This document shows, one piece after another, positions 46,141 to 61,575 of a stretch of DNA of 64,000 nucleotides (position 1 is its first letter; each line of letters starts with the position of its first letter). The stretch comes from Nitrosomonadales bacterium (GTDB lineage: Bacteria; Pseudomonadota; Gammaproteobacteria; Burkholderiales; SG8-39). Both the position numbers and the translations under genes were made by a program. The notes beneath the pieces are model-generated. The model did no database searches. It saw nothing but the letters and a program-made list of their open reading frames with translations, and was not told the origin of the DNA. The stretch spans positions 4,188 to 68,187 of the forward strand of contig SBAS01000115.1 in NCBI GenBank assembly GCA_005240145.1, given 5' to 3'.

Positions 46141-47361
46141 TCAGAGTTCGCCGTAGACGCCGAGCGCGGCGTCGACCGCGGCGCCCCGGGGCAGCCTGAA
46201 TCCTTGCGCCGAAAGCACCGCTTCCAGCGCGCCCAGCGTGATCAGCACGGCATCCTCGCGCGCGTTATAGCCCATGGCGCCGATGCGCCAGATCCTGCCG
46301 CGCAGCGGCCCGAAGGAGGTGCCGATCTCGATGCCGAAGTGGCCCAGCAGCGCGCTGCGGGCCTTCTCGCCGTCCACGCCCTGCGGCACGAAGACCCCGG
46401 TGACGTTGGTCATCTTGTGTTTCGGGTCGCCGAAGAGCTTGAGACCCATCGCCTCGAGCCCGCGCGTCAGCGCCCTGGAGGCGAGCGCATGGCGCGCGAA
46501 CGCCTGCGGCAGACCTTCCTGGAGCAGGATGCGGGCGCATTCGCGCGCCGCGTAGAGCATGCTGGTCGCCTCGGTGTGGTGGTTGAGCGCCTTGTCCGAC
46601 CAGTAGTCCATGATCATGGCGAGGTCGAGGTAGTTGCTGCGGATCACCGGACCTTCGCCATCCTGCTGGTTCTGTTCGCGCAAGCCTTGCTCCGTATGAC
46701 GGCGCCGCACGATCGCCCGCTCCGCCCGCTCGTTGAGCGTGAGCGGCGCGGCGCCCGAGGGGCCGCCGAGGCATTTCTGCAGCCCGGCGCTCACCACGTC
46801 GAGCTGCCAGGCGTCGGTGGGCAGGTCCATGCCGCCGAGCGTGGCGGTGGCGTCGACATAAAGCAACGCGTCGTGCGCGCGGCAGATTCGCCCGAGCGCG
46901 GCGAGCGGCTGCGCCATCGTTGTGGAGGTGTCGCCGCGCGAAATGGCGACAAGCTTCGGCTGCTGTTTCTTTATCTCTTTTTCGAGCACCTCCGCCGGAA
47001 AGATCTGGCCCCACTCTGTCTCCACGGTCCGCACGTCGGCGCCCAAGCGCTTCGCGATCTCGACTTTGAGGTGGCCGAAGCGGCCGAACACCGGCACCAG
47101 CACCCGGTCGCCGGGCTCGATCAGCGAAGCGAGCGCCGCCTCGATCGCCGAGCGCGCAGTGCCGTCGATCAGCAGCGTCTGCCGGTTCTGCGTCTGGAAC
47201 ACGCCGCGGTAGAGTTGCGACACCTGCTGCATGTAGCCGCGGAACTGCGGATCGAACTGGCCGAGCAGCGGCGCGCTCATGGCGCGCAGCACGCGCGGGT
47301 CGGCGTTGATCGGCCCGGGGCCCATGAGGAGCCTCGGCCCCGGGTTGATGTCTTCAAACAT
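46141..47361 (-). CDS. pucG: PLP class V aminotransferase, PucG-like (S)-ureidoglycine-glyoxylate transaminase
   Basis: LLMGPGP, LGQFDP, DATATLGG, GLQKCLGGPSG, NHHTEATSMLY, WRIGAMG; ureide gene context. Confidence 0.85.
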   Translation of the reverse strand: MFEDINPGPRLLMGPGPINADPRVLRAMSAPLLGQFDPQFRGYMQQVSQLYRGVFQTQNRQTLLIDGTARSAIEAALASLIEPGDRVLVPVFGRFGHLKVEIAKRLGADVRTVETEWGQIFPAEVLEKEIKKQQPKLVAISRGDTSTTMAQPLAALGRICRAHDALLYVDATATLGGMDLPTDAWQLDVVSAGLQKCLGGPSGAAPLTLNERAERAIVRRRHTEQGLREQNQQDGEGPVIRSNYLDLAMIMDYWSDKALNHHTEATSMLYAARECARILLQEGLPQAFARHALASRALTRGLEAMGLKLFGDPKHKMTNVTGVFVPQGVDGEKARSALLGHFGIEIGTSFGPLRGRIWRIGAMGYNAREDAVLITLGALEAVLSAQGFRLPRGAAVDAALGVYGEL

Positions 47362-48262
47362 GGGAATGATGTTTCAGCCAGTGCCTCGCGATGTCGATAC
47401 GCCGGGTGACCCAGACTTTCTTGTTTCCTACATATTTCAGGAATCTCTCCAGGGAATTGAAACGTCCGGGCCTGCCCGCCAGCCTGCAATGCATGCCGAC
47501 CGACATCATGCGACCGCCTTCGGCGTAGAGGACGTCGAAGGAGTCCTTCAGGTACTGGAAGAACTGCTCGCCGGAGTTGAAGCCCTGCGGCGTGGCGAAG
47601 CGCATGTCGTTCGCGTCCAGCGTGTAGGGCACCACCAGCTGCGGCTTGCCGCCTTTCTTCCTATAGCGCGTGTCGTAGAACGGCAGCTCGTCGCTGTAAT
47701 CGTCGGCGTCGTAGACGAAGCCGCCGTCCTCCACGACCAGGCGGCGCGTGTTGGGACTGGTGCGCCCGGTGTACCAGCCCAGCGGCCTCGACCCCGTGAG
47801 GCGCTTGTGGATCTCGATCGCGCGCTGCATGTGCGCGCGTTCCTCCTCGAGCGGTACCTGCTGGTAGCTGATCCAGCGCCAGCCGTGGCTCGCGATCTCG
47901 TGCTTCGCCTCGAGGAAGGCCTCGACCACCGCCGGGTTGCGTTCCATCGCCATGGCGACGCCGAACACGGTGAGCGGCAGGTCGTATTTTCGGAACAGCG
48001 CCAGCAGCCGCCACACGCCGACCCGCGCGCCGTATTCGTACAGCGACTCCATCGACATGTGGCGCGCGCCCTCGAAGGCCTGCGCGCCGACGATCTCCGA
48101 AAGGAACGCTTCGCTCGCCTTGTCGCCGTGCAGCACCGAGTTCTCGCCCCCTTCCTCGTAGTTGAGGACGAACTGCAGCGCGATGCGCGCGCCGCCCGGC
48201 CATTTCACCCTGGGCGGCGCTGCCCCGTATCCGGCCAGGTCGCGTGGGTAGGTTTCTTTCAA
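47354..48262 (-). CDS. puuE: Metal-independent allantoinase PuuE (polysaccharide deacetylase fold)
   Basis: YPRDLAGYG, FVLNYEEGGEN, SMESLYEYG, HGWRW, GWYTGR, PYTLDANDMRF, GMHCR. Confidence 0.95.
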   Translation of the reverse strand: MKETYPRDLAGYGAAPPRVKWPGGARIALQFVLNYEEGGENSVLHGDKASEAFLSEIVGAQAFEGARHMSMESLYEYGARVGVWRLLALFRKYDLPLTVFGVAMAMERNPAVVEAFLEAKHEIASHGWRWISYQQVPLEEERAHMQRAIEIHKRLTGSRPLGWYTGRTSPNTRRLVVEDGGFVYDADDYSDELPFYDTRYRKKGGKPQLVVPYTLDANDMRFATPQGFNSGEQFFQYLKDSFDVLYAEGGRMMSVGMHCRLAGRPGRFNSLERFLKYVGNKKVWVTRRIDIARHWLKHHSHV

Positions 48263-49500
48263 TCACTCGCTCCGAGCAGGTCAAAGAGCGAGAGTGCGAC
48301 AACTTCGGTCGCCCTGTAAAGGTCGTCGAGCTTCAGGTTCTCGTCGGCGCGGTGGCCGTTCGCCTCCTCCAGCGTGCGCGGGCCGGCGCCGTAGAGCACC
48401 GTGGGTATGCCCGCTTCGCTGTAGTGGCGCGCATCGGTGTAGAGCGGCACGCCACGCGCTTCGATCTCGAGGCCGAACACCGTGCGCGCGCCGGCTTGCA
48501 GTGCCCGCACCAGCCGTTCCTGCCCGGGGCGCGGCACGAACGGATTGGCCAGAAGGATCCTGCGGACTTCGACGCGGATACCCGGCATTTTGCGCACCGA
48601 TTCCTTGATCAGCGCGGTGATGAACTTTTCCGCTGCCCCGGGAATCTCATCGGGTGTGATGCGTCGGTCGAGCCGGAACACCACCCGGTCGGGCACCACG
48701 TTGGTGTTGATGCCGCCGGAGATCAGCCCAACCACCAGGGTCGGGTAGCCGATACCCGGGATCGCCGAAGGCAGCGCGGTGAGCGCCTTGCGGTAGGAAT
48801 ACAGGTCCCCGAGGATCGCCGCTGCCGCCTCCATCGCGTCGTCGCCCTTGTCGGGCTCGGCTGCGTGTCCGGACTTGCCCAGGATCTCCACTTCCAGGTG
48901 CAGGCAGCCGTTGTGGGCGGTGGTCACGGCGTAGGCGAACCCGGCGCTGATCGCATAGTCGGGTTTCGAGATGCCCTGCTCGAGCAGCCACTTCGGGCCG
49001 ATCGCGCCGCCCGCTTCTTCGTCGTAGGTGAAGTGCAGCTCGACGGCTCCTCTCAGTCCGCTGGAGAATTTTTTCAGCGAAAGCAAGGCAAACGCGTAAG
49101 TTGCGAAATCGGACTTCGACACCGCAACCCCGCGTCCGTACATGCGGCCCTCGCGGAGCTCGGCGCCGTAGGGATCGCAGCTCCAGCCCCCTCCCGGCGG
49201 CACCACGTCGCCGTGCGCGTTGAGCGCGATCGTCGGCCCGCCTTCCCCGAACCGTTCCCGCACCACGAGGTTGGTGCACGACATCATCCCGTTTGCCTTC
49301 ACCAGCTCGTTCGGAACCGGGAGACGCTCCACCGCGAAGCCAAGCTCGCCCAGCAGTGTCGCCGCTTTGGCCGCGGAGCGCTCACAGTCGCCGGGCGGAT
49401 TGTCCGAGGGTACCTTGATCAGTTCGGCGAGAAAGCGGATCTGCGCTGCGCGCTCTCCAGACAGGAAATCGTGAATCCGTCTGCGCGCAGCGGTGCTCAT
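48259..49500 (-). CDS. M20/ArgE-DapE family metallohydrolase of unknown specificity
   Basis: NAHGDVVPP, YDEEAGG, GKSGHAA, GGINTNVVPD, C-terminal GHRADE. Confidence 0.85.
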   Translation of the reverse strand: MSTAARRRIHDFLSGERAAQIRFLAELIKVPSDNPPGDCERSAAKAATLLGELGFAVERLPVPNELVKANGMMSCTNLVVRERFGEGGPTIALNAHGDVVPPGGGWSCDPYGAELREGRMYGRGVAVSKSDFATYAFALLSLKKFSSGLRGAVELHFTYDEEAGGAIGPKWLLEQGISKPDYAISAGFAYAVTTAHNGCLHLEVEILGKSGHAAEPDKGDDAMEAAAAILGDLYSYRKALTALPSAIPGIGYPTLVVGLISGGINTNVVPDRVVFRLDRRITPDEIPGAAEKFITALIKESVRKMPGIRVEVRRILLANPFVPRPGQERLVRALQAGARTVFGLEIEARGVPLYTDARHYSEAGIPTVLYGAGPRTLEEANGHRADENLKLDDLYRATEVVALSLFDLLGASD

Positions 49501-50753
49501 ACCCGTGCTTGGGGCCGGAAATTCTCGATAAAGCGCAACAGCACGCGTACTCCGGTTTGCGCATCCTCCGCGGTGATTGCTTCGGCAGGATTATGGCTGA
49601 TGCCCCTCTTGCAGCGCACGAACAGCATGCCGATGTCGCACAGATCGATCATCGCCATGCCGTCGTGGCCGGCGCCGCTCGGCAGCTTGCGAACCGCGAT
49701 GCCCTCGGCTGCGATCGCAGCGCCGATCTGTTCCTGCAGCCACGGCGCGCACTTGGCGACGTTGCCCTCGTGGGTCTTCGAGACCTTGATCGCAACGCCG
49801 CGGCGCTTCGCGATCGTCTCCATCTGCGCGACGACCTCGGTCACGGCAGCGAGGCGCTCTGGATCGCGCGGCGAACGGATGTCGATGGTGAAACGCACCC
49901 GGCCCGGGATTACATTGACCGCCCCGGGAAGCGTCTCCAGCTTGCCGACCGTGCCGACGAGTTCGGGCACCTTCGCGCATCGCTGCTCGATCGCCAGCAC
50001 ACATTCGGCGGCGGCCGCGAGTGCGTCCCGCCTCAGGTTCATCGGCACCGTGCCGGCGTGGCCCGCGATTCCCTCGACCTCGATCGCGAACCGGGTCGCG
50101 CCGTTGATCGCGGTCACCACGCCCACGGGCAGGCCCTCGGCTTCCAGCACCGGACCCTGCTCGATGTGCAGCTCGGCGTAGGCCAGCACGTCCTCGCGCC
50201 GGTGCGCCGCCTGCGCAATGCGCTCGGGATCGAGTCCGGACGCACGCATCGCGGCGCGCATGCTGACCCCGTCCGCGTCCACGCTGTCGAGCACCTCGCA
50301 TTTGAACGTTCCGGCGACGGCGCGGCTGCCGAGCAGGGTCGAGCTGAAGCGCACGCCCTCCTCGTCGGCAAACCCAATGACCTCGATCGCGAATGACAGG
50401 CGCCTGCCGCGCGCGGCGAGGTCTGCGACACATTCGATCGCGCTCACCACGCCGAGCATGCCGTCGTACTTGCCGGCGTCGCGCACCGTGTCTAGGTGCG
50501 ATCCCAACAGCAGCGCCGGCCGCCCGGGCCGCTCGCCCTCGTAGCGCCCGACGACGTTACCGATCGCGTCCAGCTTCGCGCTCATGCCCGCTTCGCGCAT
50601 CCAGCCGAGCACAAGCTCATTTGCCGCAGCCTGCTCACGCGACAGGAATACGCGCGTCAGGCCGCCGGCAAGCTCCGATTGGCAGGCGAGCGCTGCGCAG
50701 CGCTCAAGCATGCGCCGCGCCGACAGACCTGCGTTAACGGCCCGCCGGTTCAC
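49497..50753 (-). CDS. Allantoate amidohydrolase (Zn-dependent, M20 family)
   Basis: GSHLDTV, GKYDGMLGV, ADEEGVRF, ELHIEQGP, GHAGTVPM, SGAGHD, GISHNPAE; start GTG 50753 preferred (ATG 50711 possible). Confidence 0.9.
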   Translation of the reverse strand: MNRRAVNAGLSARRMLERCAALACQSELAGGLTRVFLSREQAAANELVLGWMREAGMSAKLDAIGNVVGRYEGERPGRPALLLGSHLDTVRDAGKYDGMLGVVSAIECVADLAARGRRLSFAIEVIGFADEEGVRFSSTLLGSRAVAGTFKCEVLDSVDADGVSMRAAMRASGLDPERIAQAAHRREDVLAYAELHIEQGPVLEAEGLPVGVVTAINGATRFAIEVEGIAGHAGTVPMNLRRDALAAAAECVLAIEQRCAKVPELVGTVGKLETLPGAVNVIPGRVRFTIDIRSPRDPERLAAVTEVVAQMETIAKRRGVAIKVSKTHEGNVAKCAPWLQEQIGAAIAAEGIAVRKLPSGAGHDGMAMIDLCDIGMLFVRCKRGISHNPAEAITAEDAQTGVRVLLRFIENFRPQARV

Positions 50754-50848
50754 GTCGCAGCCGGCACGACCTTGGGCGCGGCGCCGAATTTCTCCAGTTC
50801 CATCAGCGAGTTCCACAGCCGGGAACCGTTCACCATGAGCGCGGGCAT
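50750..50848 (-). pseudogene. 32-aa 5' remnant of a second Zn-dependent ureido/carbamoyl amidohydrolase
   Basis: MPALMVNGSRLWNSLMELEKFGAAPKVVPAAT* resembles the (I/V)NGxRLWxSLMExAxIGATPKGG N-terminus of N-carbamoyl-amino-acid hydrolases; its TGA overlaps GTG 50753. Confidence 0.65.
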
Positions 50849-50901
50849 GGCGAAATCATACTATCGGGCACGCGCCGCCGTGCTTTTCCGGGAATATTTT
50901 T

Positions 50902-50910
50902 TGCTAGACT
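50902..50910 (+). promoter_or_regulatory. Candidate TG-extended -10 element for the ABC importer operon
   Basis: TGcTAGACT after an AT-rich tract in the divergent intergenic region, about 50 nt before ATG 50960 (RBS GGGAG). Confidence 0.45.
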
Positions 50911-50959
50911 TGCGTCCGCCAGATCGGGTTCGAGCCATCAACCAATTAAGGGAGCAAAT

Positions 50960-52609
50960 ATGCAACGCAAATCGATCGCCCTGACGGTAGCGGCGCTGTT
51001 CGTAGTTGGCGCGCTGCCGTTTGCGCAGGACGCCGGCGCGCAGTCGGTGCTGCGTATCGCCATGACTGCGGCGGACATCCCGAAAACCTCCGGCCAGCCG
51101 GACCAGGGATTCGAGGGCAACCGTTTCACCGGCATTCCGCTCTATGACGCGCTGACGCAGTGGGATCTCTCTTCGGCGGACAAGCCGAGCGTGCTGATTC
51201 CCGGCCTCGCCACCGCGTGGCGAGTGAGCGATACCGACAAGACCAAATGGACTTTCACGCTCAGGAAGGGCGTCAAGTTCCACGACGGCAGCGAGCTCAC
51301 CGCCAACGCCATCGTCTGGAACGTGGACAAGGTGCTGAACAAGGACGCGCGCCACTTCGCGCCCGACCAGATCGGCGTCACGGTGTCGCGCATGCCGAAC
51401 CTGGTATCGGCGCGCAGGATCGACGATTTCACGGTGGAACTCACCACCAAGGAGCCCGACAGCTTCCTGCCGCTCAACCTGACCAACCTCTTCATCGCCT
51501 CTCCGGCGCACTGGCAGAAGAAATACGACGCACTCGCTTCGGTGTCCGACGCCGCCGAACGCGCCAAGCAGGCCTGGGCGGCCTTCGCCGCCGACGCATC
51601 GGGTTCGGGCCCTTTCAAGATGGCGCGCTTCTCGCCGCGCGAGCGCGTCGAGTACGTGAAGAATGAGGCCTACTGGGACCCGAAGCGCCGTACCAAGCTC
51701 GATCGCGTGGTGCTCCTGCCGATGCCGGAGGCGAGCGCGCGCACGGCGGCGCTGCTCTCGGGGCAGGTGGACTGGATCGAAAGTCCCGCGCCCGACGCGG
51801 TGCCGCAGATCAAGCAGAAAGGCTTCATCCTCCACACCAACGCCCAGCCGCACGTCTGGCCCTGGCAGTTTTCCTTCGTGGAGGGCTCGCCGTGGCTCGA
51901 CAAGCGCGTGCGCCACGCCGCCAACCTGTGCGTGAACCGCGAGGAGCTCAAGCAGGCGCTGGGCGGCTTGATGGAGATTCCCAAGGGCACGGTGCCGCCC
52001 GGGCATCCCTGGTGGGGTAACCCGAAGTTCGAGATCAAGTACGACCTGAAGGCGGCGCAGAAGCTGATGGCGGATGCCGGATTTGGGCCCAACAAGCGCC
52101 TGAAGGTGAAAACCTTGACTTCTGCCTCCGGCTCGGGCCAGATGCAGCCGGTGCCGATGAACGAGTTCGTGCAACAGGCACTGCGCGCGTGCTACTTCGA
52201 TGTCGAGCTCGAAGTCGTCGAGTGGAACGCCCTGTTCACCAACTGGCGCGAAGGGGCGAAGGATCCGAAGTCGCGCGGCGCGCATGCCACCAACGTGACC
52301 TTCGCGGCGATGGACCCGTTCTTCGCCATGGTGCGCTTCACCTCCAGCAAGACCCAGCCGCCGGTGTCGAACAACTGGGGCCACTTCGTCAATCCGGAGT
52401 TCGACGACCTGATCGCCAAGGCGCGCACTTCGTTCGACGACAAGGGCCGCGATGCGGCGCTGGCGCGGCTGCATGCGCGCATCGTCGAGGAAGCGCCGTT
52501 CCTTTGGGTGGCGCACGACGTGGGTCCACGCGCGATGAGCTCCAAGGTCAAGGGCGTGGTGCAGCCCAAGAGCTGGTTCATCGATCTCGCGCCGATGAGC
52601 ATGCAGTAA
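50960..52609 (+). CDS. Peptide/opine/nickel ABC transporter substrate-binding protein (SBP family 5)
   Basis: Signal peptide, PGLATAW, FTLRKGVKFHDGS, GSGPFK, DKRVRHA. Confidence 0.92.
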   Translation: MQRKSIALTVAALFVVGALPFAQDAGAQSVLRIAMTAADIPKTSGQPDQGFEGNRFTGIPLYDALTQWDLSSADKPSVLIPGLATAWRVSDTDKTKWTFTLRKGVKFHDGSELTANAIVWNVDKVLNKDARHFAPDQIGVTVSRMPNLVSARRIDDFTVELTTKEPDSFLPLNLTNLFIASPAHWQKKYDALASVSDAAERAKQAWAAFAADASGSGPFKMARFSPRERVEYVKNEAYWDPKRRTKLDRVVLLPMPEASARTAALLSGQVDWIESPAPDAVPQIKQKGFILHTNAQPHVWPWQFSFVEGSPWLDKRVRHAANLCVNREELKQALGGLMEIPKGTVPPGHPWWGNPKFEIKYDLKAAQKLMADAGFGPNKRLKVKTLTSASGSGQMQPVPMNEFVQQALRACYFDVELEVVEWNALFTNWREGAKDPKSRGAHATNVTFAAMDPFFAMVRFTSSKTQPPVSNNWGHFVNPEFDDLIAKARTSFDDKGRDAALARLHARIVEEAPFLWVAHDVGPRAMSSKVKGVVQPKSWFIDLAPMSMQ

Positions 52610-52684: not shown

Positions 52685-53638
52685 TTGATCCTCTACGCCA
52701 CCAAGCGCGTCCTGCTGACGCTGCCGATCATGCTCGGCGTGACCATCGTCTGTTTCGCGCTCGTGCACCTCGCGCCCGGCGATCCGCTGATTTCGGTGTT
52801 GCCACCCGATGCCTCGCAGTCCATCAAGGAACAGATGATGGCGCTCTACGGCTTCGACCGGCCCTACCACGAGCAATTCCTGCGCTGGCTCTGGCGTGTG
52901 CTGCAAGGCGATATCGGCACTTCCATCCGCACCGGGCGGCCGGTGAGCACGGAAATCAGCAAAGCGGTCGGCAATACGCTGATGTTGGCGGCACTGGCCA
53001 CCTGCATCGGTTTTCTGTTGGGTACGCTGTTCGGTTTTGTCGCCGGCTATTTCCGCGACACCTGGATCGATAAGACCGCCTCGGCGCTGTCGGTGTTCGG
53101 CGTGTCGGTGCCGCATTACTGGCTGGGCATGGTGCTGGTGATCGTTTTCGCGGCGACCTTGGGCTGGCTGCCGCCCACTGGCGCCGGGCCGGGCGGCTCG
53201 GAGGACTGGAAATGGGATTGGGTGCATTTCAAGTACCTCATCCTGCCGGCGGTCACCATGTCGGTGATTCCAATGGGCATCATCGCGCGCACGGTGCGCG
53301 CCCTGGTGGCGGAGATCCTTTCGCAGGAGTTCGTCGTCGGCCTGCGCGCCAAGGGCCTCTCGGAAGTCGGCATCTTCGGTCACGTGGTGAAGAACGCCGC
53401 GCCGACCGCGCTGGCGGTGATGGGCATACAGCTTGGCTACCTGCTTGGCGGCTCGATCCTGATTGAAACCGTGTTCGCCTGGCCGGGCACGGGCCTGCTG
53501 CTCAACGATGCGATCTTCCAGCGCGACCTGCCGCTCCTGCAGGGCACGATCCTGGTGCTGGCGATGTTCTTCGTGGTGCTCAACCTGGCGGTGGACGTGA
53601 TGCAGACCATGCTCGACCCGCGGATCCAGCGTGCCTGA
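52685..53638 (+). CDS. ABC transporter permease (DppB-like)
   Basis: LAPGDP, GDIGTS, PHYWLG, EAA-like loop LRAKGL, ETVFAWPG. Confidence 0.92.
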   Translation: MILYATKRVLLTLPIMLGVTIVCFALVHLAPGDPLISVLPPDASQSIKEQMMALYGFDRPYHEQFLRWLWRVLQGDIGTSIRTGRPVSTEISKAVGNTLMLAALATCIGFLLGTLFGFVAGYFRDTWIDKTASALSVFGVSVPHYWLGMVLVIVFAATLGWLPPTGAGPGGSEDWKWDWVHFKYLILPAVTMSVIPMGIIARTVRALVAEILSQEFVVGLRAKGLSEVGIFGHVVKNAAPTALAVMGIQLGYLLGGSILIETVFAWPGTGLLLNDAIFQRDLPLLQGTILVLAMFFVVLNLAVDVMQTMLDPRIQRA

Positions 53639-54500
53639 GCGCGTGAACGAAATCATCCGCTCGCCGGGTTTCTGGGTCACGGTGTGGCGGCGTTTTCTGC
53701 GCGATCCGGTGGCGCTCGCCGCCGCGCTGGTGGTGCTCGGCTTGATCCTCATGGCGGTGTTCGCGCCCTGGATCGCGCCGCAGGACCCTTTTCAGGGCAT
53801 GTCGCTGCGCCGGCTCAAGCCGCCGGGAACGGAAGGTTATCCGCTGGGCACCGATGAGCTCGGGCGCGACATGCTGAGCCGCCTGATCCATGGCGCGCGC
53901 ATCTCGCTGTTCATGGGCATCGTGCCGGTGCTGTGCGCGCTTTTCATCGGTGCCGCGATCGGCATCGTTGCCGGATACTCGGGCGGCTGGACCAACACAT
54001 TGCTGATGCGCACCGTAGACGTGTTCTTCGCCTTTCCCTCGGTGCTGCTGGCGGTGGCGCTGGCGGGCGCCCTCGGCCCGGGTATGACCAACGGCCTGAT
54101 TGCGCTTACCCTGGTTTTCATTCCGCCTATCGCGCGCGTCGCCGAGAGCGTCACCACCGGCGTGCGCTCGCGCGATTTCGTCGAGGCAGCCAAGGCAAGC
54201 GGCGCGGGCGCGCTGCTGATCATCAGGAAGCACGTGCTGGGCAACGTGCTCGGGCCGATTTTCGTCTACGCCATGAGCCTGGTCGCGGTGTCGATGATCC
54301 TCGCCGCCGGCCTGTCCTTCCTCGGCCTGGGCGTGAAGCCGCCACAGCCTGACTGGGGCCTGATGTTGAATACCCTGCGCACCGCGATGTACACGCAGCC
54401 GCTCCTGTGCGCGCTGCCGGGGGTGATGATCTTCATCACCTCGATCTCCTTCAACCTGATGACCGACGGGCTGCGCTCGGCGATGGACATCAAGGCCTAG
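53631..54500 (+). CDS. ABC transporter permease (DppC-like)
   Basis: LGTDELGRD, GARISL, FVEAAKASGA, LSFLGLG, PDWGLML. Confidence 0.92.
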   Translation: MPERVNEIIRSPGFWVTVWRRFLRDPVALAAALVVLGLILMAVFAPWIAPQDPFQGMSLRRLKPPGTEGYPLGTDELGRDMLSRLIHGARISLFMGIVPVLCALFIGAAIGIVAGYSGGWTNTLLMRTVDVFFAFPSVLLAVALAGALGPGMTNGLIALTLVFIPPIARVAESVTTGVRSRDFVEAAKASGAGALLIIRKHVLGNVLGPIFVYAMSLVAVSMILAAGLSFLGLGVKPPQPDWGLMLNTLRTAMYTQPLLCALPGVMIFITSISFNLMTDGLRSAMDIKA

Positions 54501-54505
54501 AGCGC

Positions 54506-55522
54506 ATGCGCGAATCCGACAACGTGCCGCTGCTCGAAGTGCGGGGCCTGGTAAAGCACTTCCCGGTGAAAAGGAACCTGCTTGGCCGCGCGACCAGCGT
54601 CGTCTCGGCGGTCGACGGCGTGGATTTCGACCTGCGCCAGGGCGAAACGCTGGGCGTGGTGGGTGAGTCGGGCTGCGGCAAATCGACCACCGCCCGGCTG
54701 CTCATGCACCTTATCGAGCCCTCCGCGGGAACCATCCGCTTCGGCGGCAAGACGGTCGGCAGCGCGGCACTGCCGCTCAAGGAGTTCCGGCGGCAGGTGC
54801 AGCTCGTGTTCCAGGACAGCTACGCCTCGCTCAACCCGCGCCTGACGGTGGAGGAATCGATCGCTTTCGGGCCGATGGTGCATGGCACGGCGCGCACGCA
54901 AGCGCAGGCGCGCACGCATGCGCTGCTCGAGCGGGTCGGCCTCGACCCGCGGCGTTTCGCCGGCCGCTTCACGCACGAGCTCTCCGGCGGGCAGCGCCAG
55001 CGCGTCAACATCGCGCGTGCGCTCGCACTGCAGCCGCGCATCCTGGTGCTGGACGAGGCGGTGTCGGCGCTCGACAAATCGGTGGAGGCGCAAGTGCTCA
55101 ACCTGCTGCTGGATCTCAAGCAGGAGTTCGGCCTGTCATACGTCTTCATCAGCCACGACCTCGAAGTGGTGCGTTTCATGGCCGCGCGGGTGCTGGTGAT
55201 GTACCTCGGGCGCGTGGCCGAGCTCGCGCCTACCGAGGCGCTCTACACCGACAGCCGGCACCCCTACACCACCGCGCTGGTGGGGTCGCTCCTGTCGATG
55301 AACCCGGACCGGCGCACCGAGGCGGCGCCGATCAGCGGCGATCCGCCCAATCCGATCGACCCGCCGCCGGGTTGCCGGTTTCATACCCGCTGTCCGCACG
55401 CCGAACCCGTCTGCGCGGCCGGCGTGCCGGGGCTGGGCATGCGCGCGCAGGAGCATTGGGTCGCCTGCCACATGGGCGACCCGATGTCCGGGCACAGCAA
55501 GGCGCCGGCGCGGGCCGCGTAA
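54506..55522 (+). CDS. ABC transporter ATP-binding protein (DppF-like)
   Basis: GESGCGKS, LSGGQRQR, LDEAVSALD, C-terminal CRFHTRC; start ATG 54506. Confidence 0.93.
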   Translation: MRESDNVPLLEVRGLVKHFPVKRNLLGRATSVVSAVDGVDFDLRQGETLGVVGESGCGKSTTARLLMHLIEPSAGTIRFGGKTVGSAALPLKEFRRQVQLVFQDSYASLNPRLTVEESIAFGPMVHGTARTQAQARTHALLERVGLDPRRFAGRFTHELSGGQRQRVNIARALALQPRILVLDEAVSALDKSVEAQVLNLLLDLKQEFGLSYVFISHDLEVVRFMAARVLVMYLGRVAELAPTEALYTDSRHPYTTALVGSLLSMNPDRRTEAAPISGDPPNPIDPPPGCRFHTRCPHAEPVCAAGVPGLGMRAQEHWVACHMGDPMSGHSKAPARAA

Positions 55523-55542: not shown

Positions 55543-56523
55543 ATGGCAGATACCGTTCTCGATATCCGCAACCTGCGCGTCACCTTCACCGGCGGCGCCA
55601 AGCACGTGCGCGCCGTCGACGGCGTCGACCTTGCCGTCGCCCCCGGCGAAGTGGTGGCCCTGCTCGGCGAATCCGGTTCCGGCAAGAGCGTGACGCTGCG
55701 CTCCGTGCTGCGCCTGCATCCGGAGGCGAAGACCCGCATCGCGGGATCGATCGTGGCTGCGGGCGTCGACGTGATGGCCCTGACGGGCGCAGCGCTCGCG
55801 GATTTTCGCGGCAAGACGGTGTCGATGATTTTCCAGGAACCGATGCTTGCGCTCGACCCGGTGTATTCGCTCGGCCAGCAGATCACCGAGTCAATCCGCA
55901 AACACGAACCGGCGGTATCGGCCGAGGCCGCGCGCCGGCGCGCCTTCGAGCTCTTCGAGCAGGTGCGCATCCCCAGCCCGGAACGGCGCCTGGACGCCTA
56001 TCCGCACGAAATGTCTGGCGGCATGCGCCAGCGCGCGATGATCGCGCTGGCACTCGCCTGCAACCCGAAGGTGCTGCTGGCCGACGAGCCCACCACCGCG
56101 CTCGACGCGACGGTACAGGTGCAGATCCTGCTGTTGTTGCGCGAATTGCAGCGCAATCTCAATCTGTCGATGATCTTCGTCACCCACGACATTGGCGTCG
56201 GCGTCGAGGTGGCGGACCGCATCGCGGTGATGTACGCCGGGCGCATCGTCGAAATCGGCGCGGTGCGCGATGTGATCCGCACGCCGCGCCATCCCTATAC
56301 CATCGGCCTGCTCTCGACGCGCGCGCAGGGCGGGCGGCTCTCGGGCAATCGCCTGACGACGATCTCGGGCAGTCCGCCGGACCTGGCCAACCTTCCCCCC
56401 GGCTGCGCGTTCGCACCGCGCTGTGCCTCCGCTTCCGCCGCCTGCCGCGAGGCCGCGCCCGCGCCGGTCGATCTCGGGGCCGGGCACGTCGTGCGCTGCA
56501 TCCACACCGCCATCACCGCCTGA
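55543..56523 (+). CDS. ABC transporter ATP-binding protein (DppD-like)
   Basis: GESGSGKS, MSGGMRQR, ADEPTTALD, CAFAPRC; start ATG 55543. Confidence 0.93.
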   Translation: MADTVLDIRNLRVTFTGGAKHVRAVDGVDLAVAPGEVVALLGESGSGKSVTLRSVLRLHPEAKTRIAGSIVAAGVDVMALTGAALADFRGKTVSMIFQEPMLALDPVYSLGQQITESIRKHEPAVSAEAARRRAFELFEQVRIPSPERRLDAYPHEMSGGMRQRAMIALALACNPKVLLADEPTTALDATVQVQILLLLRELQRNLNLSMIFVTHDIGVGVEVADRIAVMYAGRIVEIGAVRDVIRTPRHPYTIGLLSTRAQGGRLSGNRLTTISGSPPDLANLPPGCAFAPRCASASAACREAAPAPVDLGAGHVVRCIHTAITA

Positions 56524-57251
56524 TGCCGGCCATTCTTGCCATCAACCCGAACACCACGGCTGCCATCACCGCGCTCCTGGAGCGCCACCTGCGCGGCGCG
56601 GCGCCCGGCATCGAATGGCGCATGGCGGGCGGCCGGTTCGGCGCCCGCTACATCACGAGCGAAGCCGCCAGCGCGATCGCCGCGCACGCTGCGCTGGACG
56701 CCTGGGCGAACCATGCGCAGGGTTGCGATGCGGTCCTGCTCGCCTGCTTCGGCGACCCGGGCCTGCACGCGCTGCGCGAAGTGAGCGCGGTCCCGGTGCT
56801 CGGCATGGCGGAGGCCTCGATGCGCGTCGCCGCCCGCGAGGCCGGACGCTTTGCGATCGTCACCGGCGGCGATCGCTGGGGTCCGATGCTCACGCGCCTT
56901 GCGCGCGAGCTGGGATTCGGCGATGCGCTCGCGGGCGTGCGCACCATCGCACTCACCGGGGCGCAGGCGGCCGCCGACCCGGACGCCGCCGTGCACGTGC
57001 TGGCCGACGAATGCCGCGCGGCAAGGCGGGGCGCGGACGCGGTGATCCTCGGCGGCGCCGGCTTCGCCGGGCTCGCCGCGCGCGTTTCGCCATTGGCCGG
57101 CTTCCCTATCATCGACAGCGTGAGCGCGGGCGCAAGCGAGGCGGCTGCCCTGTGCGCTGGCGCGCCCTGGCCTTACCCGCGCCCTGCGCCCGGGCACCAT
57201 GCGCCTTCGACCGGCCTGGATGCGGTGCTCGCCGAGCGGCTGTCGGGCTGA
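56523..57251 (+). CDS. Asp/Glu/hydantoin racemase family protein (allantoin racemase-like; only one of the two catalytic Cys)
   Basis: INPNTT, ACFGDPG (Cys75), PVLGMAEA; second-site motif reads VILGGAGF instead of LGCAGM. Confidence 0.85.
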   Translation: MPAILAINPNTTAAITALLERHLRGAAPGIEWRMAGGRFGARYITSEAASAIAAHAALDAWANHAQGCDAVLLACFGDPGLHALREVSAVPVLGMAEASMRVAAREAGRFAIVTGGDRWGPMLTRLARELGFGDALAGVRTIALTGAQAAADPDAAVHVLADECRAARRGADAVILGGAGFAGLAARVSPLAGFPIIDSVSAGASEAAALCAGAPWPYPRPAPGHHAPSTGLDAVLAERLSG

Positions 57252-57781
57252 TGCCCGGCGCACAGCGCATGCCGCTTGCGGAAATCAATGCGCTGGACGA
57301 GGGAGGCTTTGTTGCGCTGCTTGGCATGGTGTTCGAGCATTCACCCTGGGTCGCGCAGGCGGCGTGGAAGCAGCGGCCGTTTGAATCGATCGAGGTTCTT
57401 CACGAGCAGATGACACGGGTTGTACTGCGGGCCAGCAGGCCTGAACAGCTCGCTCTGATCCTGGCGCATCCGGAGCTTGCAGGCAGCGAGGCGAAGGCCG
57501 GAACGCTCACCCTCGATTCGACGGGAGAACAAGGGCGCCTCGGATTCACCGCGCTCGGCCGCGCGGAACTTGAGAGAATAGCCGGCCTCAACCGTGCCTA
57601 TCGTGAAAAGTTCGGCTTTGCCTGCATCGTCGCGCTGCGGTTGCACGCATCGCGTGAAAGCGTGATCGCGGAGATGGAACGGCGGCGGCACAACGGCCTA
57701 GAATCGGAAATCGCCAACGCGCTCGAGCAGATCGGCCACATCGCCCGAGGGCGGCTCGACAATCTGATTCGGGAGGCCTGA
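57251..57781 (+). CDS. uraD: OHCU decarboxylase
   Basis: [31 protein letters not shown]; start ATG 57251 (or 57269). Confidence 0.9.
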
Positions 57782-57782
57782 G

Positions 57783-58136
57783 ATGGGTTGTCTGTCCACG
57801 CACGTCCTCGATACCGCCACCGGCAAGCCCGCGGCGGGAATGCAGGTCGAACTGTCGCGGCTCCAGAGCGGGGCATGGACGCTCCTGAAAGCGCTGCGCA
57901 CGAACGGCGATGGGCGAACCGACGAACCGCTGCTGGCCGGGGAAGCGCTGACAGCCGGTGAATATCGACTCGTCTTTCACGTCGCGGACTACTTCCGCGC
58001 ACGGGACGTGCAGCTGCCTGAGCCGCCGTTCCTCGACCGCGTGCCGCTGCGCTTCGGCATCGCCGATGCGGCAGCGCATTACCATGTCCCTTTGCTTTGT
58101 TCGCCCTGGAGTTACTCGACGTACCGGGGCAGCTGA
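57783..58136 (+). CDS. uraH: 5-hydroxyisourate hydrolase (transthyretin-like)
   Basis: [28 protein letters not shown]-terminal YRGS. Confidence 0.96.
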
Positions 58137-58182: not shown

Positions 58183-59499
58183 TCATGTCGGCGCGTGACG
58201 GCCGGCTGCATAGACTTCTCGTCCCATCGCATAGGTAGCGGCGATGCAGCGATCGTCGCCGAGCATGATCATGGCGAACAGCTTTTCGGGCAGGCTGCGC
58301 GCGTGGCGCATGCGCCGCTCGAGCAACGGTGTCGCCGCAAGGTCGATGACCACGAAATCGCCCTCCTTTCCTGCCTCGAAGCTGCCGATCTTGTGCTCGA
58401 GTTTCAGCGCCTGCGCGCCGCCGAGCGTCGCGAGATAGAGCGCCCGGTAGGGCGACAAGGTCTGCCCGCCGAGCTGGGCGACCTTGTAGGCTTCCTGCAT
58501 CGTGCGCAGCATGCTGAAGCTCGTTCCGGCCCCTACATCGGTTCCGAGGCCCACCGCCAGGCCGCACTCTCGCGCGCGCAGCAGATCGAAAAGGCCGCTG
58601 CCTAGAAAAAGATTCGCAGTCGGGCAAAACGCGACCATCGCCCCGCGCTCGGCCATCAGCTTGCGGTCCGCATGGTCGAGGTGAATGCAGTGTGCGAACA
58701 CCGATCGCGGGCGAACCAGGCCGAAGCCGGCGTACACGTCCAGGTAACTGCGGCTCGAAGGGAAGAGTTCCGCGACCCAAGTGACCTCGCTGCGGTTTTC
58801 GGCGAGGTGCGTGTGCAGATAAACGTCGGGAAACTCCTCAAGCAGCCGGCCCGCGCGCCGCAGCTGCTCTGCGGAGGACGTCGGCGCAAAGCGCGGCGTC
58901 ACGGCGTAGAGCATACGGTCGCGGCCATGCCAGCGCTCGATCAGCGCACGGGTCTGCGCATCGCCGCTTGCCGGGGTGTCCCGCAGATCTTCAGGGCAGT
59001 TGCGATCCATGAGCACCTTGCCCGCAATCATGCGCAAGCCACGCACCCGCGAGGCCTCGAAGATCGCCTCCACCGACTGCGGGTGCACGGTGCCGAGCAC
59101 CAGTGCGGTCGTGGTGCCGTTGCGCAGCAGCTCCTCAAGGAAGAAGTCCGCCACCTCGCGCGCGTGAGCCGGATCCTCGAACCGGCGCTCTGCCGGGAAG
59201 GTGTACTTTTCCAGCCAATCGAGCAGCTGCTCGCCGTACGAGGCGATCATGTCGGTCTGCGGATAATGGATGTGGCAGTCCACGAACCCGGGCAGCAGCA
59301 GCTTGCCCGAAAAATCCTTCAACACCGTCTGTGCAGGCAAGCGCTGAAGCAAGGCCTGCGCGTCGCCGGCTTCGAGGACGTGACCGTCGCGCAGCAGGAG
59401 CAGGCCGTCTTCGAAATACTCCGCGCCGGACGAACCTTCCCCGCCCGGATCGCGCAGGAAGTGGAGCAGACTGCCCCGCACGGCGAGCATATCGCTCAT
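58183..59499 (-). CDS. guaD: Guanine deaminase
   Basis: PGFVDCHIHYPQ, LLRNGTTTA, TPRFAPTS, HTHLAEN, HCIHL, SNLF-like TANLFLGSG, GTDVGAG. Confidence 0.95.
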   Translation of the reverse strand: MSDMLAVRGSLLHFLRDPGGEGSSGAEYFEDGLLLLRDGHVLEAGDAQALLQRLPAQTVLKDFSGKLLLPGFVDCHIHYPQTDMIASYGEQLLDWLEKYTFPAERRFEDPAHAREVADFFLEELLRNGTTTALVLGTVHPQSVEAIFEASRVRGLRMIAGKVLMDRNCPEDLRDTPASGDAQTRALIERWHGRDRMLYAVTPRFAPTSSAEQLRRAGRLLEEFPDVYLHTHLAENRSEVTWVAELFPSSRSYLDVYAGFGLVRPRSVFAHCIHLDHADRKLMAERGAMVAFCPTANLFLGSGLFDLLRARECGLAVGLGTDVGAGTSFSMLRTMQEAYKVAQLGGQTLSPYRALYLATLGGAQALKLEHKIGSFEAGKEGDFVVIDLAATPLLERRMRHARSLPEKLFAMIMLGDDRCIAATYAMGREVYAAGRHAPT

Positions 59500-59524
59500 C
59501 CGGGGCCGCGGTCCCGCGCCATGC

Positions 59525-60613
59525 CTACTTCTTCGGCAGCTGGCCTTGCACGCCCTCGACGTAGTAGTCCATCACCGCAAGCTGGTCGTCGGGCATGGAC
59601 TTGCCGGCGGCAACGCGCTCCTTGCCGCCCTGGTCCTTCACCGGGCCGGCGAACGCATGCAGCTTGCCCAAGCGCAGGTCGGCCTCGGCCCTGGCGACCA
59701 TCTCCTGCACGTCCTTCGGCACCACGGGATTGATCGGCGCGAGCTTGACCATGCCGTCCTTGATCCCGCCCCAGATGTTCGAGGGCTTGTGCTTGCCGGC
59801 GATCGCCTCCTGCGCCACCCTGGTATAGAAGGCACCCCACTGGTGCGTGCTCGCGGTGAGGTGCGCTTTGGGCCCGTACTTCGACATGTCGGAGTGGTAG
59901 CCGAAGGCGTAGACGCCTTTCTCCTGTGCCGCCTGCACCGGGGCGGTGGAATCGGTGTGCTGGCTGATGATGTCCGCGCCCTGCGATATCAGCGTCGTGG
60001 CGGCTTCGCGCTCGCGGCCCGGGTCGTACCAGGAATTCACCCAGATCACTTTGACCTCGGCCTTCGGATTCACGCTGCGCATGCCGCGTGTGAAGGCGTT
60101 GATGCCTTGCAGCACCTCCGGAATCGGGAAGGCGGCCACGTAGCCCGCGATGTTCGACTTGGTCATCTTGCCGGCGATGATGCCGGTGAGGTAACGGCCC
60201 TCGTAGAAACGTGCGTTGTAGGTGCCGACGTTGTTTTCGCGCTTGTAGCCGGTGGCGTGCTCGAAGGAAACCTTGGGGAAGGATTTCGCCACCTTGACGG
60301 TCGGGTTCATGTAGCCGAAGGAAGTGGTGAACACCAGCGCATGCCCGCTCGCGGCGAGCTCGCGGATTACGCGCTCGGCGTCCGCCCCTTCGGTGACGTT
60401 CTCGACATATTTGGTCGCCACCTTCGCGCCGAGCACTTTTTCCATCTCCTTGCGCCCGAGGTCGTGCTGGTGGGTCCAACCGGCATCGCCGATCGGACTG
60501 ACGTAGACGAAACCGATCTTCAGCGGTTGTTGCGCCTGCGCGCTTCCCGCCACCGCAACTGCCGCAGCGGCAGTGGCCGCACCGAGAAATTTCACTATCT
60601 GATGGCGAATCAT
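59525..60613 (-). CDS. BMP-family ABC substrate-binding protein (purine/nucleoside type)
   Basis: GFVYVSPIGDAGWT, FTTSFGY, YNARFYEGRY, PIPEV, QHTDS; start ATG 60613. Confidence 0.92.
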   Translation of the reverse strand: MIRHQIVKFLGAATAAAAVAVAGSAQAQQPLKIGFVYVSPIGDAGWTHQHDLGRKEMEKVLGAKVATKYVENVTEGADAERVIRELAASGHALVFTTSFGYMNPTVKVAKSFPKVSFEHATGYKRENNVGTYNARFYEGRYLTGIIAGKMTKSNIAGYVAAFPIPEVLQGINAFTRGMRSVNPKAEVKVIWVNSWYDPGREREAATTLISQGADIISQHTDSTAPVQAAQEKGVYAFGYHSDMSKYGPKAHLTASTHQWGAFYTRVAQEAIAGKHKPSNIWGGIKDGMVKLAPINPVVPKDVQEMVARAEADLRLGKLHAFAGPVKDQGGKERVAAGKSMPDDQLAVMDYYVEGVQGQLPKK

Positions 60614-60651
60614 TTTGCTTCTTCTCCTTGGTTGAACAAGTCTGGCCGCAC

Positions 60652-61575
60652 TCACGCATCCGGATGATAAGGCTTGCCCAGCGACACCGGCGCATTCAGC
60701 CGGATGATATTCGGGTGGCGCGAAATCAGCACCAGCACGACGATGGTCGCCAGGTACGGCAGGCTGGACAGCAGCTGCGAGGCCACTGCCACGCCCGCGC
60801 CCTGCGCGAAGAACTGCGCGATCGTGACGCCGCCAAAGAGGTAGGCACCGGCCAGGACGCGCCCCGGGCGCCAGGTGGCGAAGACCACCAGCGCGAGCGC
60901 GATCCAGCCGCGTCCAGCGGTCATGCCCTCGACCCACATCGGGGTGTAGACGATCGACAGAAACGCCCCGCCGATCCCGGCCATGGCGCCGCCGAACAGC
61001 GTCGCCAGGTAGCGGATGGCGATCACCGGGTAGCCGATGGCGTTGGCCGACACCGGCGATTCACCCACCGCGCGCAGCACCAGTCCGGCCCGGCTGCGAT
61101 AGAGGAACCAGCTCACCAGGGCCACCAGCAGCCAGGACAGATAGACCAGCGGCTGGTGCGAGAACAGCATCGGGCCTAGCAGCGGAACATCCGACAGCAG
61201 CGGAATTCTGAATACCAGCGGTGCTTGCAATGCAATGCTTTCCAGGGGCTTGCCGGCGAAGGCCGACAGTCCGAGGCCGAACAGGCTCAAGGCGAGCCCC
61301 GCCGCCACCTGGTTGGCCTGCAGCGTCAGCGCGAGCGCCGCGAACACCAGCGACATCGCCGCGCCCGCGAGCATGCCGGCGATTACGCCCACCCATGTGT
61401 TGCCGCTGGCCACGGTGGCGGCGAACGCGGCGATGGCCCCCACCAGCATCATGCCCTCGACGCCCAGGTTGAGAACGCCGGATTTCTCGGTCACCAGTTC
61501 ACCGAGCGCGGCGAACACCAACGGCGTGCCCGCTGCGAGCGTGGCGACGACGATCGGCACGAGCAGTTCGGTCAC
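60652..61575 (-). CDS. ABC permease (nucleoside/CUT2 type)
   Basis: EKSGVLNLGVEGMM, LRAVGESP, GRGWIALA; start GTG 61575. Confidence 0.9.
   Translation of the reverse strand: MTELLVPIVVATLAAGTPLVFAALGELVTEKSGVLNLGVEGMMLVGAIAAFAATVASGNTWVGVIAGMLAGAAMSLVFAALALTLQANQVAAGLALSLFGLGLSAFAGKPLESIALQAPLVFRIPLLSDVPLLGPMLFSHQPLVYLSWLLVALVSWFLYRSRAGLVLRAVGESPVSANAIGYPVIAIRYLATLFGGAMAGIGGAFLSIVYTPMWVEGMTAGRGWIALALVVFATWRPGRVLAGAYLFGGVTIAQFFAQGAGVAVASQLLSSLPYLATIVVLVLISRHPNIIRLNAPVSLGKPYHPDA

Follow-up and report, generated by a model that had tools for sequence, protein, structure and literature searches.

A racemase-family protein with a single catalytic cysteine in an importer operon beside allantoin genes: a candidate allantoin racemase whose second half-site is remodelled

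The superfamily of Asp/Glu/hydantoin racemases includes several well described enzymes. The L-Asp/Glu-specific racemase of Escherichia coli, EcL-DER (YgeA), has a catalytic pair Thr83/Cys197 (PMC12661438). Other members of the family act on other substrates, as is the case for NozR and OpaE (PMC10156859, PMC12661438), and for hydantoin racemase a stepwise enolate route has been proposed (PMC8142540). Here we describe a gene of this superfamily, which is found in a stretch of 64,000 nt from a Nitrosomonadales bacterium (order Burkholderiales; assembly GCA_005240145.1, contig SBAS01000115.1, positions 4,188–68,187); we call this whole stretch the window. It forms the final cistron in an operon for an ATP-binding cassette (ABC) importer of Dpp type. 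Its open reading frame gives a stop-free translation of 242 amino acids, which we call P0001. Its closest solved relatives are two allantoin racemases, HpxA from Klebsiella and AllR from Pseudomonas fluorescens, from which it differs at the second and at both catalytic sites, respectively.

P0001 matches the Pfam profile PF01177 (Asp_Glu_race) over its full length (161.9 bits, cut-off 31; positions 1–211 of the 211 in the profile) and thus belongs to the Asp/Glu/hydantoin racemase superfamily. Its top sequence matches in the PDB are HpxA (3qvj, 5.5e-23, 85 bits) and AllR (5lfd, 1e-21); the bit scores to these two types are 81–85. In the HMMER alignment with 3qvj Cys75 (ACFGDPG) pairs with the first catalytic cysteine of HpxA, Cys79, and Gly178 (ILGGAGF) pairs with the second one, Cys184, which is found in the motif VLGCGGM. 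The motifs of the N-terminal half-site, NPNT and CFGDPG, are intact. P0001 does not have the cysteine pair of HpxA: Cys75 is kept, while the second site has Gly178. The initial annotation of this stretch had noticed both residues and had suggested that the protein may not be a conventional racemase with two cysteines; the alignment, the codons and the conservation in homologues agree with it. It had also taken two opposing cysteines as general for allantoin racemases, which is contradicted by AllR: this protein, an allantoin racemase by its deposition, has glycine aligned to Cys75 (AGYGEHG) and cysteine aligned to Gly178 (LGCGGM). Its statement that arylmalonate decarboxylase (AMDase) has the opposite arrangement was correct, as PDB titles give Gly74/Cys188. 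A further difference is found in the pocket. We have derived a signature, which is not a curated one, from the residues which both solved allantoin racemases share with the HpxA-type homologues that we compared from genomes: S43, E45, D/E49, T115, L116 and T119. In P0001 these positions are Y43, T45, A49, G115, G116 and W119.

Cys75 and Gly178 are conserved much too strongly for chance or an error of sequencing to be the cause. Each of them is present in all 120 closest homologues (60–100% identity) and in 118/118 full-length Cys/Gly representatives (50%-identity clusters), a set in which cluster representatives and genomic homologues were aligned together. In an exhaustive HMMER scan, 105 out of 1.84 billion cluster representatives had values below 1e-30. 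Trp119 is also found in the 118 Cys/Gly representatives without exception and is invariant in a diverse alignment (A1). All sequences with this tryptophan fall in one clade (186 of 187 tips, SH-like support 0.985 with FastTree), which we call CG-W, for Cys/Gly-Trp. Its members have Cys75 and Gly178, with the exception of two Gly/Gly sequences and some fragments. The signature of the clade, as compared with HpxA-type proteins, is T36, Y43, G115, G116, W119, L123, G146 and G178; positions 45 and 49 have no acidic residue (45 is variable, 49 is Ala or Ser). Among the 118 representatives Tyr43 is present in 90 and His55 in 87. Thr36 hardly varies within the clade, yet this residue of the signature does not hold in P0001 and its nearest relatives, which have G36.

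Some details of individual positions may be added. Of the 120 close homologues, 104 have threonine at position 36 (56628–56630), where HpxA-type proteins have Ser or Thr; P0001 and its eight closest relatives have glycine (GGC in P0001), a lineage-specific loss of a conserved hydroxyl. A sequencing error or a pseudogene at Gly178 was considered and is ruled out, as this glycine is invariant in the 120 close and in the 118 distant homologues. We also searched for a relocated second nucleophile among the clade-polar positions of the 118 representatives and, at the level of sequence, found no invariant Cys, Ser or Thr. Position 199, for example, has Ser in 60 of them, Cys in 23 and Pro in 13, so Ser/Cys is not universal. 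The initial annotation had left room for another Cys, Ser or Thr at the second site; judged from the alignment, no such residue is invariant.

The clade is large. A pattern scan with one genome per GTDB species gave at least 332 loci which encode relatives, most of them in Comamonadaceae, other lineages of the order Burkholderiales, Bosea, Methylobacterium, Devosia and related Alphaproteobacteria. In databases the close homologues have a generic name, Asp/Glu/hydantoin racemase, or the automatic name allantoin racemase. In the searchable literature we did not find a description of a Cys/Gly-Trp subfamily, and full-text searches on allantoin racemases with one cysteine, or on ABC importers of allantoin, yielded nothing of use. 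The kind of enzyme is known, and so is the idea of an allantoin racemase with one cysteine; what is new is the mirrored Cys/Gly arrangement with a rebuilt half-site.

An orthologous operon is found in another Burkholderiales genome (G121). There two M20 genes and puuE (in the order M20b-M20a-puuE) are divergent from the genes of a solute-binding protein (SBP), two permeases and two ATPases, with 66–76% identity to the proteins of the window. The final slot of this operon is not occupied by a CG-W gene: it contains an HpxA-type racemase with both cysteines, which matches Klebsiella HpxA (3qvj) with 218 bits (1e-63) and has the pocket residues of HpxA. Two paralogues thus occupy one slot of one conserved operon. 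In a further genome (G209) the same ABC system lies beside an HpxA-type gene and puuE.

The distribution of the two types in genomes is complementary. Among 301 genomes of the same order, the CG-W type occurs in 15 and the HpxA type in 12, and no genome has the two together; four families hold both types, always in different genomes. Five further carriers of CG-W genes (Xenophilus aerolatus, Methylobacterium bullatum, a Comamonadaceae isolate, Bosea sp. WAO and Acidovorax kalamii) also lack the HpxA type when their PF01177 paralogues are examined, so that the two types are found together in 0 of 20 genomes. This pattern is what a paralogous displacement of one function predicts. The allantoinase PuuE exceeds its curated cut-off in 18/20 genomes with the CG-W type, to be compared with a background of 63/301: these are all five named carriers and 13 of the 15, where the two assemblies without it are 84–89% complete. 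Orthologues of the SBP are present in 15 of the 301 genomes; outside the order, a class-level search of 400 genomes found none and so added no operon whose racemase slot could be compared. In one Burkholderiales genome (G036) we have detected an AllR-like Gly/Cys protein with S43, E45, N47, E49, T115, L116 and T119 (G036:C10:43391-44020, L138). The same genome has an HpxA-type Cys/Cys gene beside puuE (L026), so these two types can coexist, unlike CG-W and HpxA in the genomes searched.

The conserved partner of the CG-W gene is the upstream Dpp-type importer and not uraD, the gene for 2-oxo-4-hydroxy-4-carboxy-5-ureidoimidazoline (OHCU) decarboxylase which follows it in the window. Orthologous SBP, permease and ATPase genes, about 50–80% identical, adjoin the CG-W gene in G006, G112, G061, G188 and G247, in the loci of the homologues P0018, P0003 and P0006, and in 15 of 80 GTDB loci; in G157 and G242 a copy of the SBP gene lies near it. 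PuuE or M20 genes are found near several of these ABC-linked genes, and in G006, G188, P0018 and P0003 the ABC-racemase coupling goes together with puuE/M20. The link with a peptide-type importer, which the initial annotation had pointed out, is therefore a recurrent feature. The same annotation had used the coupling with OHCU decarboxylase as a clue to function, and here the comparison is unfavourable. The overlap of the racemase gene with uraD and the gene of 5-hydroxyisourate hydrolase (HIUase) is kept in P0003 (81% identity), the nearest relative with a long contig; the overlap with uraD is absent in P0006 (79%), P0018 (69%) and G006 (65%) and was not seen in the 80 GTDB loci. As a feature of the clade it was rejected, since it is confined to the nearest lineage.

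Other contexts of CG-W genes are also found. In Comamonadaceae (L057, L066, L070, L071, L083, L085, L089, L097 and others) a Pot-type ABC system (TOBE_2 ATPase, SBP_bac_8 and two permeases) and a GntR/FCD regulator precede the CG-W gene, which is often followed by a polysaccharide-deacetylase protein, 25–29% identical to PuuE. A third context is present in Bosea, where a regulator of the LacI family and an ABC system with SBP_bac_8 are found close to the gene. In six of the orthologous Dpp-type operons (L034, L054, L055, L061, L063 and L181) there are two tandem SBP_bac_5 genes, whose products are about 55–75% and about 50% identical to the single SBP of the window, which suggests two related ligands.

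We consider it probable that P0001 is an isofunctional allantoin racemase with one cysteine and a remodelled second half-site, which takes part in a module for allantoin uptake and catabolism. As an orthologous operon has an HpxA-type racemase with both cysteines in this slot, an unusual racemase is more likely than an enzyme of a new kind. What the analysis shows are the features of the sequence and how they are conserved, the clade, the contexts of the gene and its fold; substrate, racemase activity and a one-base mechanism are what we infer. The import of allantoin and its equilibration for PuuE are suggested by the gene context and by the HpxA replacement. The gene is in fact associated with an S-specific allantoinase and with ureide catabolism: PuuE, an AllC-type amidohydrolase, uraD and HIUase flank it.

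The process might be as follows. The Dpp-type importer would bring in environmental, racemic allantoin, and P0001 would interconvert its (R) and (S) forms, so that the S-specific PuuE, divergently encoded, could use all of it. The thiol of Cys75 would be the sole base or acid, taking or giving the C5 proton on one face. In the second half-site, which would have been rebuilt, Cys178 is replaced by Gly, Thr115/Leu116 by Gly/Gly and Thr119 by the invariant Trp. The proton of the opposite face could come from water, or the substrate could bind again in a flipped, pseudo-symmetric orientation. As an alternative the enzyme may promote the racemisation of allantoin itself, for which an intramolecular route is reportedly available. 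The C5-H of hydantoins is activated. This activation and the proposed stepwise enolate route make a single base plausible by analogy, with AllR as a precedent; the one-cysteine enzyme of P. fluorescens is said to racemise allantoin.

The AlphaFold2 (AF2) model of P0001, based on an alignment of 67 sequences, has pLDDT 96.7 and pTM 0.93. It shows the two pseudo-symmetric alpha/beta domains of the family, with VIA-align Z values of 15–32 to many of its structures, and it is closest to the solved allantoin racemases: Z is 32.3 for AllR 5lg5 (root mean square deviation, rmsd, 1.9 Å over 232 residues) and 31.8 for HpxA 3qvk (2.0 Å, 238 residues). The values are lower for hydantoin racemase 2eq5 (24.4), OpaE (21.6), maleate isomerase (about 19) and AMDase (16.5–18.8). 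According to DSSP, in this model Trp119 lies between strand E110-115 and helix H119-129; Gly115, Gly116 and Trp119 form the loop and the start of the helix after strand 5, and Gly177/Gly178 come after strand 7. From the topology, strands 5 and 7 should lie side by side, as their symmetric counterparts in the first domain are strand 1 (NPNT) and strand 3 (CFGDPG). All changes specific to the clade, apart from the loop 43–49, would then fall in the second half-site, where the three glycines open a space which the invariant tryptophan probably fills.

Several observations weigh against an allantoin racemase. The residues common to HpxA and AllR (S43, E45, D/E49, T115, L116 and T119) are all changed in the CG-W clade, and with all shared pocket residues replaced the binding of the substrate cannot be the same. 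These differences are in part a matter of distance, since the HpxA type matches the AllR type better (162 bits) than either of them matches P0001 (81–85 bits). Two sister sequences within the clade, P0202 and P0236, have glycine at both catalytic sites and keep G115, G116 and W119, and the sister groups of the clade (A/G, V/G and I/G) have no catalytic cysteine at all. Most CG-W genes are not beside ureide genes; many come after a different ABC system, of Pot type, with GntR, or are solitary. The genomes compared are related, so that the complementary distribution overstates their independence. It is conceivable, although unlikely, that P0001 is a racemase or epimerase for another imported chiral compound similar to an ureide or hydantoin, such as a 5-substituted hydantoin or another cyclic amide, instead of allantoin. 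Such an enzyme would agree with the change of every pocket position shared by HpxA and AllR, with the three types of transporter found with CG-W genes (Dpp-type, Pot-type with GntR, SBP_bac_8 with LacI), with the distant PuuE-like deacetylase (25–29% identity) which is often the only one to follow them, with an SBP that has no close solved relative and with the family members known to use other substrates (NozR and OpaE; PMC10156859, PMC12661438). Against it speak the HpxA orthologue which fills this slot in the orthologous operon, the bona fide PuuE and allantoate amidohydrolase which adjoin the operon in the subclade of P0001, and the lack of any genome with both types (0/20).

The initial annotation had raised the possibility of a stereospecific protonase, decarboxylase or isomerase. 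We keep this proposal as a rival, slightly less probable than a different substrate; with an HpxA-type gene in the same slot and no co-occurrence in 20 genomes, it is not the best reading. Cys75 would act on one face of a planar intermediate, and Trp119, in the cavity of Gly115, Gly116 and Gly178, would be a hydrophobic wall which shields the face of the lost cysteine. The reaction might be stereospecific protonation, decarboxylation or tautomerisation of an ureide intermediate, or a strictly one-base exchange. A single cysteine with glycine opposite recalls AMDase, although mirrored, and the concentration of three glycines and an invariant tryptophan in the second half-site would suit this role. 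The overlap with uraD in this lineage also fits, as uraD handles a carboxylated precursor of allantoin; on the other hand its adjacency is not conserved and, uraD itself being present, no decarboxylase is missing. The AMDase model NF052327 gives 20.3 bits for a cut-off of 225, and AMDase structures are far worse matches (Z 16.5–18.8) than allantoin racemases (Z about 32). The HpxA replacement argues for a racemase, and an enzyme with one cysteine deposited as allantoin racemase already exists (5lfd). It is very improbable that P0001 has lost racemase chemistry altogether and is a non-catalytic or regulatory ligand-binding pseudoenzyme. The sister groups A/G, V/G and I/G and the two Gly/Gly members of the clade are conserved in spite of having no catalytic cysteine, which gives some basis to this idea; yet CFGDPG, NPNT and Cys75 are kept across the clade (the two Gly/Gly members apart), the gene is translationally coupled within a catabolic operon and the model has a compact, confident fold.

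The features of the locus are given in Table 1. The stop codon of the second ATPase and the start of the racemase gene overlap as TGATG (56521–56525), and so do the racemase stop and the uraD start (57249–57253). The translational coupling with uraD that was proposed initially is thus real as an overlap, but uraD starts at the ATG in 57251 and not in 57248. The divergent strand also carries a class-V aminotransferase and FdrA, and a guanine deaminase is found downstream in convergent orientation. The closest solved relative of the SBP is only a DppA/HbpA-like protein (2e-31), and the PDB search gave no relative informative about its ligand. No palindromes were found in the divergent promoter region 50780–50990. 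Between the guanine deaminase and BPD_transp_2 permeases there is an open reading frame of 399 amino acids (59496–60695, minus strand) with no Pfam or NCBIfam match, which might be spurious, as the DNA is rich in GC, or might encode a binding protein that is not recognised as such.

Table 1. Position of the features discussed, in the window unless a genome and contig are given
Feature	Position	Strand	Basis or remarks
P0001, Cys/Gly-Trp (CG-W) subfamily racemase-like gene	56523..57251	+	PF01177, HpxA/AllR matches, AF2 model
Cys75 codon (TGC), retained first catalytic Cys	56745..56747	+	aligns to HpxA Cys79; codon checked
Gly178 codon (GGC), replaces second catalytic Cys	57054..57056	+	ILGGAGF; VLGCGGM in HpxA
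Loop Gly115-Gly116-x-x-Trp119 after strand 5 (TGG at 56877)	56865..56879	+	clade-specific; Thr-Leu-x-Arg-Thr in HpxA/AllR
SBP_bac_5 solute-binding protein, first gene of Dpp-type ABC operon	50960..52609	+	Pfam
Two ABC permeases	52685-53638, 53631-54500	+	BPD_transp_1 + OppC_N
Two ABC ATPases	ATG 54506-55522, ATG 55543-56523	+	ABC_tran + oligo_HPY
OHCU decarboxylase uraD	57251..57781	+	TIGR03164 161.7 bits, cut-off 96
5-hydroxyisourate hydrolase	57783..58136	+	TIGR02962 137 bits, cut-off 87
PuuE allantoinase, divergent from ABC operon	47354-48262	-	TIGR03212 508 bits, cut-off 424.6
ArgE/DapE-type M20, divergent from ABC operon	48259-49500	-	
Allantoate amidohydrolase, divergent from ABC operon	49497-50816	-	NF006775 572.6 bits, cut-off 479
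Val/Gly gene + PuuE paralogue (L031)	G210:C511:2033-3576		
Val/Gly gene + PuuE paralogue (L135)	G123:C4:252487-254057		
Val/Gly gene + PuuE paralogue (L136)	G015:C12:45368-46938		

Other members of the family with peculiar catalytic sites were also detected. The genome of the window (G000) has on another contig (C102) a paralogue of 222 amino acids similar to hydantoin racemases, with both cysteines (ACYSDPG ... MGCAGM; L001:1465-2133, minus strand); it is only 28–29% identical to P0001, and its neighbours are a binding protein of TctC/Bug type and an ABC system for amino acids. In one genus of the order sample (g18; L018, L020, L021, L131 and L132) there are adjacent pairs of racemase-family paralogues in opposite orientation: one is Ala/Gly without catalytic cysteine (AAFGDPG ... 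VGGGPLAG), the other is Gly/Cys and has only the second one (AGFGNVG ... ILACAGL). They may be a two-protein system or subfunctionalised half-sites. Val/Gly genes without cysteine (AVSMDTG ... MAGAVAAG) adjoin PuuE paralogues, which have 290–300 bits and are below the PuuE cut-off; this pairing is conserved.

If P0001 is indeed an allantoin racemase, either cysteine of the two-base dyad would have been lost independently for the same substrate, giving Gly/Cys in AllR and Cys/Gly in CG-W. This would bear on the old question whether activated C-H acids react by a one-base or a two-base mechanism. Allantoin is such an acid, and it would also be the likely substrate of a family-5 ABC importer that now resembles a peptide transporter. 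As the clade is large and has generic labels, many annotations would be corrected or confirmed by a tested function. A natural scaffold whose catalytic cysteine lies opposite to the AMDase side has practical interest for biocatalysis. Should the one-face reaction be true, it would be a new reaction in purine/ureide catabolism, and the scaffold would have a stereochemical outcome opposite to that of AMDase.

We may finally compare P0001 with the known enzymes of the superfamily. HpxA (3QVJ, 3QVK, 3QVL) has the same fold (Z 31.7–31.8, rmsd 2.0 Å over 238 residues, 32% identity) and shares with it NPNT, ACFGDPG and the first cysteine; as an HpxA orthologue fills its operon slot in G121, they have the same genomic role. 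The pocket is different: S43, E45, H47, D49, T115, L116 and T119 of HpxA become Y43, T45, E47, A49, G115, G116 and W119. AllR (5LFD, 5LG5) is likewise a natural one-cysteine protein of the same family (Z 31.9–32.3, rmsd 1.7–1.9 Å). Its Gly/Cys arrangement is the mirror image of the Cys/Gly of P0001 and has the polarity of AMDase, and it keeps the HpxA-type pocket (S43, E45, E49, T115, L116, T119), which the CG-W clade does not. Hydantoin racemases (2EQ5 from P. horikoshii, HyuA/HyuE type) belong to the same family and have the same kind of cyclic ureide substrate, but they have two cysteines, where P0001 has Gly178, and the match with 2eq5 is 3e-5 (Z 24.4). At the other end we find two more distant enzymes. 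EcL-DER (5ELL, 5ELM) shows that an unbalanced catalytic pair already has a precedent within the superfamily, although it is far from P0001 (Z 15.3–15.6), acts on amino acids and has a hydroxyl, not glycine, at the altered site. AMDase from Bordetella (3DG9, 3IXL, 3IXM) shares the superfamily fold and the presence of one cysteine and one glycine at the catalytic positions. Its Gly74/Cys188 are the reverse of those in P0001, the structural match is weaker (Z 16.5–18.8) and there is no malonate-type context around P0001. Membership in the AMDase group was rejected: the match to NF052327 is partial (residues 59–111) and far below its cut-off, and the Cys/Gly order is reversed.

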